From a virus (lineage: Duplodnaviria; Heunggongvirae; Uroviricota; Caudoviricetes): DNA of 4,201 bases. The notes beneath the pieces were generated by a model. The model was not told where the DNA came from. It saw only the letters and a program-made list of their open reading frames with translations, and did no database searches. The stretch is from positions 1 through 4,201 of the IMG/VR virus record IMGVR_UViG_2648501150_000013. One strand, given 5' to 3'. Each line of letters begins with the position of its first letter. Positions within the stretch are counted from its first letter, which is position 1. The position numbers and the translations under genes were made by a program. Positions 1 through 4,201 of the stretch are shown piece after piece.

Positions 1-560
1 TGGTTCCCAGCCTCATAGGCTACCCGCAACCAGTGCATGAATGTTTCCGCAGACACACAGCCGCAGTCCACATCGATTTCCCCGCGTTGCTGCTCCAGCC
101 ATTGCTCAAAATCTAACTTGTAAGCCTTACTTTCAGGTTCATCACCATTGAACTCGACTTTCTGCGACGCTATGAGAGCGGCTTCGTACTGTTCGCGAGT
201 GACAACCGATGTAAACGCACTGCGATCAAGGTCACTGATATCGCAAATAATGCCATCAATGGAATAATTCTTTGATGATTGGTAATTTTTATGGTGCGTA
301 CCAAAAAGAACCATAGCGCGACTACTACCTGGCATCGTAATGGATAGATGGCAAAAATCTTTTCCATCAGGCCATCCACGCCCCTTAGATAATTCCTTCA
401 CTAACAAGTCAATCAGTGTCATAGCGTTACCATCCTTGCAAGGCGCTAAAGCTATTTTGGCAAGCTCCAATACTTCATCTGCTGCGTATCCAGCACTGTG
501 ACCATACATTTCGATGCTGGTGATAATCTCTGATATGCGTTTTTTAGTGATTCTTGTCAT
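1..560 (-). CDS. Hypothetical prophage protein, partial (start codon at 560; C-terminus lies beyond the left window edge). Its C-proximal part is paralogous to the central module of the 1649..2161 gene.
   Basis: Manual translation of the minus strand from ATG at 560..558 gives an open frame with no stop to position 1 (MTRITKKRISEIITSIEMYGHSAGYAADEVLELAKIALAP...KLDFEQWLEQQRGEIDVDCGCVSAETFMHWLRVAYEAGN...). The ATG overlaps the TGA of the upstream gene (ATGA). It is missed by the ORF track because it has no stop inside the window. Confidence 0.7.
   Translation of the reverse strand, partial: MTRITKKRISEIITSIEMYGHSAGYAADEVLELAKIALAPCKDGNAMTLIDLLVKELSKGRGWPDGKDFCHLSITMPGSSRAMVLFGTHHKNYQSSKNYSIDGIICDISDLDRSAFTSVVTREQYEAALIASQKVEFNGDEPESKAYKLDFEQWLEQQRGEIDVDCGCVSAETFMHWLRVAYEAGN
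7..124. repeat. Diverged direct repeat, copy 1 (partner at 1878..1995).
   Basis: Ungapped alignment at a constant offset of 1871 nt. I counted about 80% identity over the 95 nt at 30..124. Both copies encode the FEQWLEQQ-x-G-x-IDVDCGCVS module of two different genes. Confidence 0.7.
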
Positions 561-766
561 AGTTTTATTTCCTTGCATGGTTCGCCTTTACGGCAAACAG
601 CTACACGGTCATTTCTTACATTAACCACGGTCACCGTTCCGTCATCGCATTGAATAACGATGAAAGGGTGTTCATTCTCTTTTGTGCAATGTTGCTGTTC
701 CCCTGCTATAACAGTGAGGGGAATTAATAAAATAATAATTACTGCGAATTTACTAAATGTTGCCAT
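557..766 (-). CDS. Small cysteine-containing protein (69 aa) with a predicted N-terminal signal peptide or membrane anchor; function unknown.
   Basis: ORF track. The N-terminus MATFSKFAVIIILLIPLTVIAG has a short charged n-region and a roughly 15-residue hydrophobic core; the remaining ~47 residues contain 4 Cys. The TGA stop overlaps the ATG of the next gene. The upstream SD is weak (AGAAAG). Confidence 0.6.
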   Translation of the reverse strand: MATFSKFAVIIILLIPLTVIAGEQQHCTKENEHPFIVIQCDDGTVTVVNVRNDRVAVCRKGEPCKEIKL

Positions 767-790
767 AGCAATCTTTCTTTCTGTTTTTCA

Positions 791-1084
791 TTATGGTTGA
801 ATCCAGTTATCTTCAATAGCAATGCTCAATCTTTGTAACCATTCTGCTAATTTCAGCATTGCTTCTCTTTCGCTTAAACCACGAGGAAAATCATCAAGCG
901 ATATTGTTGGCTTGAAGTTTCCCAAATTATCCATTTCAACGGTCAGATTTTGCTCCAGCACGGTATTCCTTACGCGGCTATTGTGCCGAAGCAAATATAC
1001 TGAACGTGATTTATTGGTTTTGTGGTCGAGCTGATATTCGGTAAGTATCATCTGGCTTCCGCCATGATTATTACCGCGCCACAT
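791..1084 (-). CDS. Hypothetical protein, 97 aa.
   Basis: ORF track. GGAG lies 5 nt upstream of the ATG at 1084. An alternative internal start at Met12 (MILTEYQ...) cannot be excluded. No family recognised. Confidence 0.6.
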   Translation of the reverse strand: MWRGNNHGGSQMILTEYQLDHKTNKSRSVYLLRHNSRVRNTVLEQNLTVEMDNLGNFKPTISLDDFPRGLSEREAMLKLAEWLQRLSIAIEDNWIQP

Positions 1085-1107
1085 AATTACTCCGTGTTAA
1101 TTGAAAT

Positions 1108-1389
1108 TTAGCTATTAATCTTCACTTTTATCGCGAACACCTTTACCGGTTTATCACCGAAGTGCGGATGTGTGATTGTCTTGATTTCATATCCGTCATA
1201 CGGAACATCAATTCTGCGGCTGGAATCGTCGCGCTTCGGATATCCCTTTGTGATAATCAGGCGGTCATACTTACGGTTAACGAGGCGCTTATTCCAGTAG
1301 TCATTACACAGGCGATACTCTTCCGTTTTATCTCCGCGAATCATGGCATCGAAGTATTCACCTTTGACGGCAAGTTGCAGGTTAGCCAT
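1108..1389 (-). CDS. ASCH-like (PUA-fold) small protein, 93 aa; start trimmed relative to the ORF track.
   Basis: A strong SD (GGAGGTGA) precedes the ATG at 1389..1387, so the start is set at MANLQLAVKGEYFDAMIRGDKTEEYR. The G-x-K-T-x-E-x-R motif near the N-terminus matches the ASCH-domain signature as I recall it (for example E. coli YqfB). The ATG overlaps the upstream TAA (TAATG). Confidence 0.6.
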   Translation of the reverse strand: MANLQLAVKGEYFDAMIRGDKTEEYRLCNDYWNKRLVNRKYDRLIITKGYPKRDDSSRRIDVPYDGYEIKTITHPHFGDKPVKVFAIKVKINS

Positions 1390-1649
1390 TACCTCACCTC
1401 CAGTCTCCATACCGCCTGACCAATCCGGCTGGCATGGGTATCTTTGGATACTGTTCCGTCTTTAGCCAGCTCCATAAGAATTTTGCGCAAATCTGCCGAG
1501 CGCCATTCTTCATCAGGAAATTCCTTCTCCATTGCCAACCGCAGATTCCAGGTTGCTATCGTGAATGGATATTCACCGCCGAGAGCTTTCTCTTGTAGGG
1601 CAGCACGGGAACGCATCACCTGCAAAACCTTCTCTTTTACATCCATCAT
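1389..1649 (-). CDS. Hypothetical protein, 86 aa; start trimmed relative to the ORF track.
   Basis: AAGGAGG lies 4 nt upstream of the ATG at 1649..1647 (MMDVKEKVLQ...). The ATG overlaps the TAA of the upstream DUF551-like gene (TAATG). The 24 codons upstream in the ORF track lie inside the preceding gene. Confidence 0.6.
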   Translation of the reverse strand: MMDVKEKVLQVMRSRAALQEKALGGEYPFTIATWNLRLAMEKEFPDEEWRSADLRKILMELAKDGTVSKDTHASRIGQAVWRLEVR

Positions 1650-2161
1650 TACGCCTCCTTCGGCGGTTCTGGTAGCGGCATCCAGTGTGACGGTTTCCAC
1701 GACGCACCAGGAATTATCCACCCATCATTAGCGTCAGGATGCCCGGGGATGTAAGTAGCCCATTTCATTCGCCAGTCACCTTTCCTGTCAAACTCCACGG
1801 CAACAAGAACGGCTGTTTTGGTATTCGGCATTCGCTCACTACAGCTTATCCAACCATCCGGAATTACCGGAGAGTTGCCAGCCTCATACGCCACACGCAT
1901 CCAGTGCAGAAGCATTTCAGTGCTCACACAGCCGCAATCAACATCAATTTTGCCGTGCTGCTGTTCCAGCCATTGCTCAAAAGTTAACTTGTAAGTTTGG
2001 CTTACAGGTTCTGCACTATCAGCTTCGCGCCGCTTCTGTAGCTCTGCTGCCATCGCTCTCACGACTTCAACTGGTGCCCTTGCAGCAAACTCTATGTTGG
2101 TGATCAGCTCATTAAGATATTGCTCGCCTGGATACTGTTTCTTATCGGTTATAGTGGTCAT
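1649..2161 (-). CDS. DUF551-like phage protein, 170 aa; start trimmed relative to the ORF track.
   Basis: AAGGAGAG lies 4 nt upstream of the ATG at 2161..2159 (MTTITDKKQYPGEQ...). The C-terminus (...GWIIPGASWKPSHWMPLPEPPKEA) resembles the conserved end of DUF551 prophage proteins as recalled; this needs an HMM check. The central module (FEQWLEQQHGKIDVDCGCVS...VAYEAGN) is shared with the partial gene at 1..560. Confidence 0.7.
   Translation of the reverse strand: MTTITDKKQYPGEQYLNELITNIEFAARAPVEVVRAMAAELQKRREADSAEPVSQTYKLTFEQWLEQQHGKIDVDCGCVSTEMLLHWMRVAYEAGNSPVIPDGWISCSERMPNTKTAVLVAVEFDRKGDWRMKWATYIPGHPDANDGWIIPGASWKPSHWMPLPEPPKEA
1878..1995. repeat. Diverged direct repeat, copy 2 (partner at 7..124).
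   Basis: See copy 1; lies inside the DUF551-like gene. Confidence 0.7.
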
Positions 2162-2210
2162 ATCACTCTCCTTTTCCCTGAAGCATAGCGGCACGGCAGG
2201 CATTCCACCC
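2159..2210. repeat. Direct repeat of about 52 nt, copy 1 (partner at 2812..2863), spanning a gene junction.
   Basis: catatcactctcc...gaagcatagcggc(a/g)cggcagg is near-identical in both copies, with compensating 1-nt indels. It covers the start codon of the downstream gene, the SD, the stop, and the last ~15 codons (GWNACRAAMLxGKGE) of paralogs A and B. Confidence 0.75.
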
Positions 2211-2540
2211 CTTCACATAACCGAACGCCATCAACTGATCACTCATGGCGGGCAGCATTGTGTGGGTCGTACTGATTTCTTCCGGCACTACCGGCGCTGG
2301 CGGGGCGATGCGTCCAAGCAACTTATTTACCTCTTTCGCCATCGCGTCATATTTATCTAAATGGCGATTAGCTTCTAAGCAGACTCGGCGCATCTGATCT
2401 GAGTTAACTCGTTTAACTGGATCTGCTTCCAGCGATGCCAGCGCAATCCGTGCCAGTTCCATTTGTTCACCACGGGTAAGCCCGTTTTCAAGCGGATTTT
2501 TAATGAACAATTCAATACGTTCTTTGGTAATAGTGGTCAT
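2163..2540 (-). CDS. Hypothetical phage protein, 125 aa (paralog A; possibly Ead/Ea22-like).
   Basis: ORF track. TAAGGAGT lies 5 nt upstream of the ATG at 2540. It shares three motif patches with the 2816..3229 gene (IALASLEA, PAPVVP, GWNACRAAMLxGKGE at the C-terminus). The Ea22-like label is from memory and is not verified. Confidence 0.7.
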   Translation of the reverse strand: MTTITKERIELFIKNPLENGLTRGEQMELARIALASLEADPVKRVNSDQMRRVCLEANRHLDKYDAMAKEVNKLLGRIAPPAPVVPEEISTTHTMLPAMSDQLMAFGYVKGWNACRAAMLQGKGE

Positions 2541-2550
2541 GTGTTACTCC

Positions 2551-2814
2551 TTAACCCGCAGTGCTTTCAACTGATGAGGGGAACAAAATCTTTTCATCAA
2601 ACCCTGCATTCATATCATGGACAGCAACACACCAATCCATTGACGAACGATTATCAAGAGCCTCCATGATTTCATCCATGCGGCGCAGGTCATACAGGTA
2701 AATGCTTTTATCGCCAATGGTGTAAAAACCAATTTTTTTCGGTGATGGGCAGCGATCAAGAACGTCCTGTAATTCGTTCAACCATGCCCGTTCTTTTTTT
2801 GTTAAAGTTGCCAT
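2551..2814 (-). CDS. Hypothetical protein, 87 aa; start trimmed relative to the ORF track.
   Basis: AAGGAGAG lies 4 nt upstream of the ATG at 2814..2812 (MATLTKKERAWLNELQDVL...). The ORF-track N-terminal extension would run through the C-terminus of the upstream gene. No family recognised. Confidence 0.6.
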   Translation of the reverse strand: MATLTKKERAWLNELQDVLDRCPSPKKIGFYTIGDKSIYLYDLRRMDEIMEALDNRSSMDWCVAVHDMNAGFDEKILFPSSVESTAG

Positions 2815-2863
2815 ATCACTCTCCTTTCCCATGAAGCATAGCGGCGCGGCAGGCGTTCCAGCC
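2812..2863. repeat. Direct repeat of about 52 nt, copy 2 (partner at 2159..2210).
   Basis: See copy 1. Confidence 0.75.
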
Positions 2864-3229
2864 TGTAGCGTATGCAGCCGCTTTGCTGCTGCCTTCAACT
2901 GGCGCATCCTGCCAATACATTTCATCCGGCACTACCGGCGCTGGCAAGGCAGCGTGATAGTAGAGTGGCATAGTTTTGTACAGTGGTTCGCCAGGACTTC
3001 CGTCAACCTGATTCCATTCTTCAACCCAGGCATCAACAACCGCTTTGCTGGTTGATACATGTTCTTCTGAATCTACATTTTGTCCTGATATACAGAACAT
3101 AACTGCCTCTGCTTCCAGCGATGCCAGAGCAATTTCATAAGCACGGCGCTCAATATTGTCTCGAACGTCCAAGCTGCCTATGCGCTCTTTGATTTCTTTA
3201 ATCAGTTCTTTGTCGGTAAAAGTGGTCAT
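2816..3229 (-). CDS. Hypothetical phage protein, 137 aa (paralog B; possibly Ead/Ea22-like); start trimmed relative to the ORF track.
   Basis: AAGGAGA lies 5 nt upstream of the ATG at 3229..3227 (MTTFTDKELIKEI...). The C-terminus ...ATGWNACRAAMLHGKGE and the internal IALASLEAE and PAPVVPDE patches match paralog A. Confidence 0.7.
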   Translation of the reverse strand: MTTFTDKELIKEIKERIGSLDVRDNIERRAYEIALASLEAEAVMFCISGQNVDSEEHVSTSKAVVDAWVEEWNQVDGSPGEPLYKTMPLYYHAALPAPVVPDEMYWQDAPVEGSSKAAAYATGWNACRAAMLHGKGE

Positions 3230-3230
3230 A

Positions 3231-3590
3231 TCAATCTCCTTTGGTACCAATGTTTACAGCCTGGCAAGCCTCTTTGAGCACCCAGTCAACAGCGTCTTTC
3301 CATGCTCCGGTTTCGACTGGCGGATTCTCACGCTTTACCTGTTCATAGAAACGCACTGCTTTAATCAATCCTTCTGGTGTCAGTGGCACAGGCGGGACAG
3401 TGAATAAGGCCTGAATCTCATAGCTCGGCCTGTCGTTGCAATCCTCTTTTGTCGGGACATATTTCCAGTCACCAACCCACTGCTTCCCCTGAAAGTCTGT
3501 AACGCCTTTTTTCACGTAGCGATATCGCCATGCCACTGGTTTTGCCTGCCCTGCCTTTTCATGCCCTTCCTGATAATTAATCTCGCTCAT
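3231..3590 (-). CDS. Hypothetical protein, 119 aa.
   Basis: ORF track. The ATG at 3590..3588 overlaps the TGA of the upstream small ORF (ATGA). The SD is weak. The protein ends ...GTKGD, immediately followed by the conserved junction and the next ATG. Confidence 0.6.
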   Translation of the reverse strand: MSEINYQEGHEKAGQAKPVAWRYRYVKKGVTDFQGKQWVGDWKYVPTKEDCNDRPSYEIQALFTVPPVPLTPEGLIKAVRFYEQVKRENPPVETGAWKDAVDWVLKEACQAVNIGTKGD

Positions 3591-3763
3591 TCATCGCCCC
3601 ACTCATCACAATATGCTTCGACCGGTGTTTTCCCTGCTTCATAATCATCACGCCATGCTTCAGCATCAGCGGCACTTCCACCGCGTAACTCTGCATAATC
3701 CATTAACAGTTCATGCCATTCTTCAAAACTGGCGTTATATTTAGTTGAACCAAAATCAGCCAT
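3587..3763 (-). CDS. Small acidic protein, 58 aa, not in the ORF track (below its length cutoff).
   Basis: Manual translation from ATG 3763..3761 to TGA 3589..3587 gives MADFGSTKYNASFEEWHELLMDYAELRGGSAADAEAWRDDYEAGKTPVEAYCDEWGDE, with 16 D/E against 4 K/R. GAGGAAG lies about 9 nt upstream. It fills the otherwise empty gap between two coupled genes, and its stop overlaps the next ATG. Confidence 0.5.
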   Translation of the reverse strand: MADFGSTKYNASFEEWHELLMDYAELRGGSAADAEAWRDDYEAGKTPVEAYCDEWGDE

Positions 3764-3938
3764 TTTGTTCTTCCTCTTCGTCTTTTATTTCGTGGTATGA
3801 GTAATTGCAGTAGTTAAAGAAAATATCTTTAGCTTCATCCTGTATTTCATCTGGTGTTGCATCATCATCCACTTCGAATTCATCCTCGAAATCTCCACCG
3901 GCTATTCCCGTTTCAATAATTATTTTGAATTTTCGCAT
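3756..3938 (-). CDS. Small highly acidic protein, 60 aa.
   Basis: ORF track. MRKFKIIIETGIAGGDFEDEFEVDDDATPDEIQDEAKDIFFNYCNYSYHEIKDEEEEQNG has 20 D/E against 5 K/R. There is no alternative in-frame start upstream, where an in-frame TAA lies. No canonical SD is close to the ATG, and a hairpin sits just upstream. Confidence 0.5.
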   Translation of the reverse strand: MRKFKIIIETGIAGGDFEDEFEVDDDATPDEIQDEAKDIFFNYCNYSYHEIKDEEEEQNG

Positions 3939-4028
3939 TTCACTACCGCCCTTTCGGACGGCCTCCTGATGTTCTGAGGGTGCAGGAATCCCTCCGGTTA
4001 AGGATTAAATTTTTAACAGAGCTAAATT
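3939..4028 (-). promoter_or_regulatory. Intergenic leader upstream of the acidic gene pair: an AT-rich stretch plus a stem-loop with a GNRA-type loop in the minus-strand transcript.
   Basis: This is the only intergenic gap longer than 25 nt in the window. Minus-strand RNA CCGUCC-GAAA-GGGCGG (plus coordinates 3944..3959) forms a 6-bp stem with one G-U wobble, which on the plus strand would be a C-A mismatch. A second 5-bp stem, GAGGG/CCCTC, lies at 3975..3993. An AT-rich segment spans about 4000..4028. Confidence 0.3.
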
Positions 4029-4201
4029 TAATTATTCAGTTCTGGATTTTGTCGCCCTGCGTATCCGCGCTTTCGCGTTACGCTCAATCTGAATTAGCTT
4101 TTCTATATTTTTTCGCCTTTCCCGCTCCTCCTGACGCAAGAGCCTTACATCATCTGCCAGTCTGGTTTCTCTTTTCGCCACAGAGAGCATCCAGTCAAAT
4201 G
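4029..4201 (-). CDS. Possible small basic protein, partial or about 53 aa, Lys/Arg/Glu-rich and coiled-coil-like.
   Basis: The minus-strand frame is open from the right window edge to TAA at 4031..4029 (...MLSVAKRETRLADDVRLLRQEERERRKNIEKLIQIERNAKARIRRATKSRTE). A candidate ATG sits at 4190..4188, but the true start may lie outside the window. The composition is low-complexity, so this could be chance. Confidence 0.3.

Follow-up and report, generated by a model that had tools for sequence, protein, structure and literature searches.

A predicted exported four-cysteine miniprotein of P1/P7-like phage-plasmids with relatives in conjugative plasmids and other phages

We describe a gene of 69 codons that very probably specifies an exported, disulfide-bonded miniprotein of the periplasm, as judged from its own sequence and from those of its relatives. 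The gene lies on a 4,201-nucleotide stretch of a virus of the Caudoviricetes (IMG/VR record IMGVR_UViG_2648501150_000013, positions 1 to 4,201), to which we refer as the window, and occupies positions 557..766 of the minus strand as a complete open reading frame (ORF) including its stop codon (ATG 766-764, TGA 559-557; product MATFSKFAVIIILLIPLTVIAGEQQHCTKENEHPFIVIQCDDGTVTVVNVRNDRVAVCRKGEPCKEIKL). Entries for this protein and for a plasmid homologue were already catalogued with no function (phrog_20764; RefSeq WP_000190275.1 and WP_015387362.1). What is new here is the union of several PHROGs and a plasmid protein into one superfamily of predicted exported four-cysteine proteins, its spread across different mobile elements, a leader swap within the phage-plasmids and a confidently predicted fold.

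A gene under purifying selection

Is so short an ORF a gene at all? Besides its length, a weak Shine-Dalgarno-like signal (a purine-rich AAGAAAG 6 nt before the ATG, within the 24-nt spacer at 767..790, minus strand, that follows the TAA of the upstream gene; its function is presumed) and the label 'hypothetical' in every annotation would suit a chance ORF, or a cytoplasmic peptide with no functional exported protein behind it. However, that reading is hardly credible and is effectively refuted by conservation at 23 related loci, which all share the reading frame, the length of 69 codons and the TGA stop, and by a ratio of non-synonymous to synonymous substitution (dN/dS) of 0.08-0.22 for the mature part in every non-saturated pair (Nei-Gojobori). 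The protein belongs to a PHROG family: the hidden Markov model of phrog_20764 matches it with E = 1.6e-51, residues 1-69 falling on profile positions 1-69 of 69. RefSeq holds it as a 'hypothetical protein' of 69 amino acids (WP_000190275.1, about 97-99% identical; also WP_032323266.1). A scan of both strands against Rfam matched no RNA family, and the confident fold, the invariant Cys residues and the universal leaders described below likewise speak against a chance ORF. We conclude that the 69-codon ORF is a real gene under strong purifying selection.

Predicted signal peptide and probable export

The first 21 codons (704..766, minus strand; MATFSKFAVIIILLIPLTVIA) encode a predicted Sec-type signal peptide, for which our rules place the signal peptidase I (SPase I) cut after Ala21. 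An n-region MATFSK (charge +1, Lys6) is followed by a 15-residue h-region, FAVIIILLIPLTVIA, and then by GEQQHC. The best 8-residue mean Kyte-Doolittle (KD) value of the h-region is 3.95, and the c-region has Pro16 at -6, Val19 at -3 and Ala21 at -1, with the cut site V-I-A/G. By rule, all the features of a Sec/SPase I substrate are found: a charged n-region, an h-region within 7-15 residues, a helix breaker and small residues at -3 and -1. The predicted mature part has 48 amino acids, or 47 if the cut falls after G22, in agreement with the preliminary description of this DNA, which had pointed out a signal-peptide-like N-terminus and four Cys residues in a mature part of about 47 amino acids.

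The leader is a feature of the whole family. A hydrophobic leader and, 3-11 residues ahead of the first Cys (Cys1), a small-x-small site were found in 52 of 52 full-length members by a rule that permits a polar c-region; a stricter initial SPase-site rule had picked out 34 of the 52. Exactly four Cys follow the leader in 51 of these 52 proteins. The leader contains no lipobox ([LVI][ASTVI][GAS]C): it ends ...LTVIA/GEQQHC, and Cys1 lies 5-6 residues past the cut, as it does family-wide. Nor is there a Tat twin-arginine motif, the n-region MATFSK being free of Arg. Export of the product, as predicted by this rule-based signal-peptide analysis, is well supported.

The N-terminus might instead stay uncleaved and anchor a bitopic inner-membrane protein (N-in, C-out) whose Cys-rich domain faces the periplasm, by analogy with many superinfection-exclusion or holin-regulating proteins. 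Such an anchor would be in keeping with the h-regions of about 20 residues seen in some relatives, with a second, upstream hydrophobic segment in a subfamily (P0031, P0041, P0042 and P0054) and with a 58-amino-acid two-helix membrane ORF that lies directly upstream in some phage-plasmids (3745..3921 of locus L021). However, the h-region of the window protein spans only 15 residues and comes with Pro at -6 and a V-x-A site, and the occurrence of a small-x-small site in all 52 members suggests that the site is used. We consider an uncleaved anchor quite unlikely, and less likely than cleavage.

Leader swap within phage-plasmids

Loci L019-L023 carry a near-identical mature coding sequence behind an unrelated leader, MKHFLRLAFVLALFAPPAAMA. 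Between the window and L019 the mature part has a dS of 0.07 and a dN of 0, whereas the leader has a dS of 1.7 and a dN of 0.75. This contrast, together with blastn and the alignment, places an approximate mosaic joint at codons ~18-22 (701..715, minus strand). Throughout the family the leaders are unrelated in sequence and diverge freely, yet the features of the n-, h- and c-regions are always present. Because leaders of unrelated sequence are always there, and two of them are joined to otherwise identical mature sequence, we infer that export itself is the selected property.

In the phage-plasmids with the alternative leader, the 58-amino-acid ORF mentioned above, with its two hydrophobic helices (MKNRKKFWITFLFVCLCGLFILLAGG...), is an extra gene situated between those for the 97-amino-acid upstream protein and the miniprotein. 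Two proteins, P0015 and P0017, are apparent deletion fusions that join the start of this ORF to a leaderless mature domain, and are probably defective copies. One variant, L021, also has a 90-amino-acid ORF with a lipobox-like LAVSGC leader (4963..5235), about 0.75 kb downstream of the miniprotein gene, which would be a second envelope-directed product of the array.

A four-cysteine superfamily with a predicted beta-meander fold

A word-indexed search returned 17 close clusters, from Escherichia or Salmonella only, and two successive profile searches, the first of which covered 1.8 billion representatives, extended the family to about 50 clusters of 62-114 amino acids with identities down to 26%. 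A tblastn search of the phage collection with the full precursor gave no match, probably owing to low-complexity masking of the leader and to the short query; relatives were found through the profile searches and through queries with distant members. In the alignments only the four Cys and Q39, G43 and V45 are invariant. In the window the Cys codons, all on the minus strand, are those of Cys27 (686..688), Cys40 (647..649), Cys58 (593..595) and Cys64 (575..577), with spacings of 13, 18 and 6; in the family they are 13-14, 16-18 and 6-14, the last being the variable one. The second Cys lies in the motif [TIS]QCx[DN]GTV[TS], which reads IQCDDGTVT in the window. The earlier suggestion of an exported, Cys-stabilised miniprotein has thus gained in strength, with leader features in 52 of 52 members and four Cys invariant down to 26% identity.

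The mature domain (codons 22-69, 48 amino acids; 560..703, minus strand) is predicted to form an antiparallel beta-meander of five strands. With an alignment of 12 sequences, AlphaFold2 (AF2) gave a predicted local distance difference test (pLDDT) score of ~78 for the mature part and of <50 for the leader; when the mature part was modelled by itself from 38 diverse sequences, the pLDDT was 92.4 and the predicted template modelling score (pTM) 0.68. The up-and-down strands comprise mature residues 6-11, 14-19, 24-28, 33-37 and 44-47. Cys27 starts strand 1, Cys40 ends strand 2, Cys58 ends strand 4 and Cys64 stands directly before strand 5. The likely disulfides are Cys27-Cys40 and Cys58-Cys64, because in the hairpin register of the AF2 model the first two residues are partners across the first hairpin, with its two-residue turn, and the last two bracket the only loop of variable length, which their bond would close. 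The predicted fold has no specific structural match in the PDB.

In PHROGs the superfamily is divided among three families of unknown function, phrog_20764, phrog_11462 (the group of the jumbo Erwinia phage Ea35-70) and phrog_8391. Distant relatives match both phrog_20764 and phrog_11462, and W6B1F0, a protein of Ea35-70, has a BFVD model that superposes on the predicted fold at a TMq of 0.85. Among Pfam families PF23887 scores highest, with 15.6 bits (cut-off 27); no Pfam or NCBIfam model reaches its threshold in any member, and across the 19 members scanned no family turns up repeatedly. We rejected the sub-cut-off PF23887 match as leader or composition noise, and likewise an NCBIfam match to the Shiga-toxin B subunit in one member of the 19 (E = 0.02); a single PDB sequence-profile match (E = 0.29) was also set aside. 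A literature search by accession, PHROG identifier and motif peptides found no paper on the family. In three long proteins, P0019 (4619 amino acids), P0029 (547 amino acids) and P0030 (1573 amino acids), the family profile (positions ~8-48) matches 6-11 separate stretches, which may represent a repeated beta-hairpin unit or compositional matches.

Carriage by phage-plasmids, conjugative plasmids and phages

Contigs of ~90 kb that encode the exact protein also bear genes for a P7-type C1 repressor, a Cre-like recombinase and dUTPase, as well as humD and phd-doc. Window positions 1-1879 match locus L047 at 99.9% identity, and in complete E. coli genomes 363 of the 368 places where the stretch is found are plasmids of about 90 kb. 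The gene belongs to an array of more than 30 small, tightly abutting, one-directional genes (Ea22-like, DUF551, ASCH, DUF968 and others) that ends in humD-phd-doc, and whose counterpart in P1 we take to be the pmgT-upfO/hot region. The preliminary description had assigned the gene to an early operon; its setting is not a lambdoid early operon, and it is a stand-alone accessory gene of a P1/P7-like phage-plasmid, located upstream of humD-phd-doc.

Relatives are not confined to phage-plasmids. In PLSDB, 122 records of 57-80 kb, typed 'conjugative', encode mature domains that are 83-85% identical to that of the window. The one plasmid checked, pHNLDH19, is typed IncI2, and its homologue (WP_015387362.1) is encoded four ORFs upstream of a virB6-like traA and near the gene for an EexN lipoprotein; many more of these plasmids are probably of the IncI2 type. 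The pHNLDH19 gene (L040 3794-4045) is annotated with a TTG start and 83 amino acids, and an internal ATG (Met13) gives a 71-residue precursor with a canonical leader; since the PHROG alignment starts at residue 13, the annotated start is probably too far upstream. Elsewhere, P2-like prophages carry a relative between gpA and ssb, the distant relative L043 sits in an early-left operon of the lambdoid type between recT/methylase and int, and another is found in a cI/Bro-N early array. In jumbo Erwinia phages of the Ea35-70 group the gene lies just upstream of that for the small subunit of ribonucleotide reductase, and a further relative is encoded on a contig resembling the 181-kb Salmonella phage Arash.

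No neighbour gene is common to the P1-like plasmids, IncI2, P2-like, lambdoid-type, jumbo Erwinia and Arash-related settings. In the window, the stop codon of the miniprotein gene overlaps the start of the downstream gene in the sequence ATGA (557..560, minus strand), in line with the translational coupling to a downstream mosaic gene noted in the preliminary description; the partner is an Ea22-like/DUF551-like mosaic. The overlap is kept in the phage-plasmid homologues and absent in the IncI2 homologue. As no neighbour is shared and the overlap is restricted to the phage-plasmids, we view the miniprotein gene as a self-contained module.

A model for the function of the miniprotein

What might a module of this kind do for elements so different? 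We propose a model in which the 69-residue precursor would cross the inner membrane via the Sec pathway and be cut by SPase I after Ala21. The 48-residue product would fold in the oxidising periplasm into a five-strand beta-meander with disulfides Cys27-Cys40 and Cys58-Cys64, and consecutive disulfides of this kind are the pattern that DsbA would make without isomerisation. The small, soluble product would then bind a periplasmic or envelope target; binding is the likely mode of action because the product is too small and featureless for catalysis and has no enzyme-like fold. Its role would be one of protection, shielding the cell that the element already occupies from rival phages or mobile elements, or from external damage to the envelope. 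This is our best guess because the relatives travel as lone genes in temperate prophages and large virulent phages as well as in phage-plasmids and an IncI2 plasmid, and protection would profit all such carriers, whether temperate phage, virulent phage or plasmid. Taken as a whole, from Sec export and disulfide fold to envelope binding and protection, the explanation is tentative and falls somewhat short of an even chance. The exclusion or protection role, argued from analogy, is possible and on balance doubtful, and the superinfection exclusion or receptor masking put forward in the preliminary description is a reasonable suggestion on the same analogy. A broader conjecture, to which we give rather little credence, is that the family might be a hitherto unrecognised class of single-gene periplasmic effectors moving among phages, phage-plasmids and conjugative plasmids of the Enterobacterales. 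In this view a beta-sheet protein of 48 residues with two disulfides would bind a conserved component of the envelope and thereby block the entry of competing phages or plasmids, or damage caused by them, or else neutralise a host defence acting in the periplasm.

Several points weigh against this model. The signal-peptide calls come from hand-written rules. The relatives with h-regions of ~20 residues, found in some jumbo phages, are possible membrane anchors. The presumed disulfide geometry is derived from strand register. Finally, genes for a type IV secretion system (T4SS) adjoin the IncI2 copy and DNA-metabolism genes adjoin the phage copies, a distribution that fits other roles equally well.

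The model has precedents among characterised systems. Llp of phage T5 is an early lipoprotein that masks the FhuA receptor; it is small, exported, disulfide-containing, beta-rich and encoded by a single gene. The miniprotein would resemble Llp in kind, as a small, exported, beta-rich phage product acting at the envelope from a single gene. However, Llp has a lipobox and is cut by SPase II, whereas the miniprotein has no lipobox and its Cys1 lies 5-6 residues past an AXA-type site; none of the libraries searched shows sequence similarity between the two. Spackle (Sp) of T4 is a periplasmic inhibitor of the gp5 tail lysozyme, and Sim of P1 is a processed periplasmic superinfection-immunity protein, an indication that the P1 lineage already uses an exported-protein strategy. 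Both are, as is predicted for the miniprotein, soluble periplasmic products with a signal peptide encoded amid genes for cytoplasmic phage proteins. They differ from it in being larger, Sp being helical, whereas the miniprotein is predicted to be an all-beta fold of 48 residues, and no homology to either was detectable in library, PDB sequence or structure searches. The entry-exclusion (Eex) lipoproteins of conjugative plasmids, such as EexN, encoded three genes downstream in pHNLDH19, are small exported products of mobile elements, as the miniprotein is predicted to be, and the IncI2 homologue lies in the same gene block as EexN. The miniprotein differs from them in that it is not a lipoprotein, has no homology to them (no NCBIfam match) and is also found in phages without a T4SS. 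Given T4 Sp, T5 Llp and P1 Sim, and the regular occurrence of relatives in such arrays, an exported product among genes of this type is less surprising than the preliminary description, which called it unexpected among early genes, had held. A search of PADLOC-DB 2.0 with 10 window proteins gave no match for any of them at E <= 0.01.

The exported protein might also act on a periplasmic or envelope component of the host for the element's own life cycle, with no exclusion of competitors. It might inhibit a periplasmic protease, nuclease or peptidoglycan hydrolase, damp an envelope-stress sensor, or aid DNA transfer or the assembly of a pilus or T4SS. The position of the IncI2 homologue within a transfer-region block, four ORFs upstream of traA, would fit such a role, as would the surroundings of the gene in virulent and jumbo phages, where relatives have DNA-metabolism and early genes about them; moreover, plasmids and phages alike must cross or remodel the envelope. 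Yet no partner gene is conserved in any setting, and searches of Pfam, NCBIfam and PDB sequences and structures revealed no similarity to known inhibitor families. Transposon data for the IncI2 plasmid TP114 show that TP114-092 is not required for conjugation in vitro (PMC7508951, Supplementary Data 1). TP114-092 is the only listed ORF between yhbB and yhaB and is equated with the homologue by pHNLDH19 gene order only; on this uncertain mapping, its dispensability argues weakly against a structural role in the T4SS. We hold a purely own-life-cycle function to be unlikely, albeit a serious contender.

Two further proposals find less room in the distribution of the family. A regulator of lysis timing, acting like an antiholin in the manner of the periplasmic domain of T4 RI and sensing or relaying signals from the envelope, would account for a small periplasmic domain encoded by several kinds of phage. 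However, no lysis genes lie nearby in any locus seen, and the gene is present in a conjugative plasmid without a lysis cassette, which makes this analogy a very unlikely one. A role outside the bacterium, in lysogenic conversion or virulence, would fit the carriage of the gene by phage-plasmids and plasmids of Escherichia, Salmonella, Shigella and Klebsiella, clinical isolates included. Against this, a Sec signal alone takes a protein no further than the periplasm, there is no similarity to a toxin or adhesin, and members of the family are encoded by a large Salmonella phage and by virulent jumbo phages that infect Erwinia, a plant pathogen. We regard such a role as highly improbable; lysogenic conversion, also raised in the preliminary description, is unlikely as a general role given relatives in large virulent and jumbo phages and in an IncI2 conjugative plasmid.

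Neighbouring genes and mosaic structure of the window

The miniprotein is the only product with a hydrophobic segment among the 13 encoded on the minus strand of the window: its 12-residue mean KD is 3.33 versus <=1.58 for the others, which bears out the earlier remark that its neighbours look cytoplasmic. Upstream lies a gene for a 97-amino-acid protein without a hydrophobic segment (791..1084, minus strand; phrog_1258, function unknown). The downstream gene (3..560, minus strand) is cut by the window end and encodes 254 amino acids in the near-identical locus L047; it is a mosaic whose N-terminus is Ea22-like and whose visible part ends C-terminally in a DUF551-type linker. No sigma-70-like promoter or intrinsic terminator was found on the minus strand within the window, and for this reason we place the operon boundaries outside it.

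Window positions 2415-4201 are 98-99.8% identical to ea22/eaA regions of lambdoid prophages (chromosomal) and of phage vB_EcoS-689R5, and this identity marks the array as a mosaic that lambdoid phages have in common with the phage-plasmids. At most 54% of the window is covered by any one record. With about 1.9 kb on the left resembling phage-plasmids and about 1.8 kb on the right resembling lambdoid phages (1-1879 versus 1880-4201), the window is a recombinant of both types of accessory module.

Repeats are found at several gene junctions. A repeat of 32-74 nt recurs at successive minus-strand junctions (2137-2210, 2790-2863 and 3205-3278, also 2526-2557), its copies being 61-82% identical; it takes in a C-terminal ...GWNACRAAML(Q/H)GKGE*, a GGAG ribosome site and the opening MTT(I/F)T... 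of the gene that follows. These repeats look like shared boundaries for the shuffling of Ea22-like modules. A direct repeat of 146 nt with 77% identity (3-148 and 1874-2019) encodes the linker 'FEQWLEQQ.G.IDVDCGCVS.E...HW.RVAYEAGN' in two genes, the truncated downstream gene and a DUF551 gene at 1649-2203, and is consistent with an exchange of domains between the two. The window has a single non-coding gap of any size (93 nt, 3939-4031), which separates a basic 52-residue ORF (4032-4190) from an acidic 60-residue ORF (3756-3938). It contains a GC hairpin, GCCGUCCGAAAGGGCGGU (minus strand), just upstream of the next start codon, and the overall fold of the gap is no better than that of shuffles (z = -0.87). 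The ORF at 1108-1410 has a RefSeq homologue annotated as an ASCH domain protein and no Pfam match at E <= 0.1; the start of its longest version (100 amino acids) is probably too early, the PHROG alignment running from residue 8 (MANLQL...).

Implications

Genes for small exported proteins rank with the most poorly annotated of phages and plasmids, and the few studied cases (T4 Sp, T5 Llp and P1 Sim) have proved to govern which newcomers may infect a cell already occupied. The mature domains discussed here are only about 15% apart between P1-like phage-plasmids and IncI2-type plasmids, a plasmid group that includes carriers of mcr-1. Should the miniprotein have no phenotype, it would remain one more conserved hypothetical protein. 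If the family is indeed a class of mobile periplasmic effectors, it would represent a new mechanism of exclusion or counter-defence with a fold of its own. A role of the miniprotein in exclusion or envelope protection, if borne out, would have consequences for host range in phage therapy and for the competition between resistance plasmids and phages, and it would add a family without a Pfam entry to the functional map.

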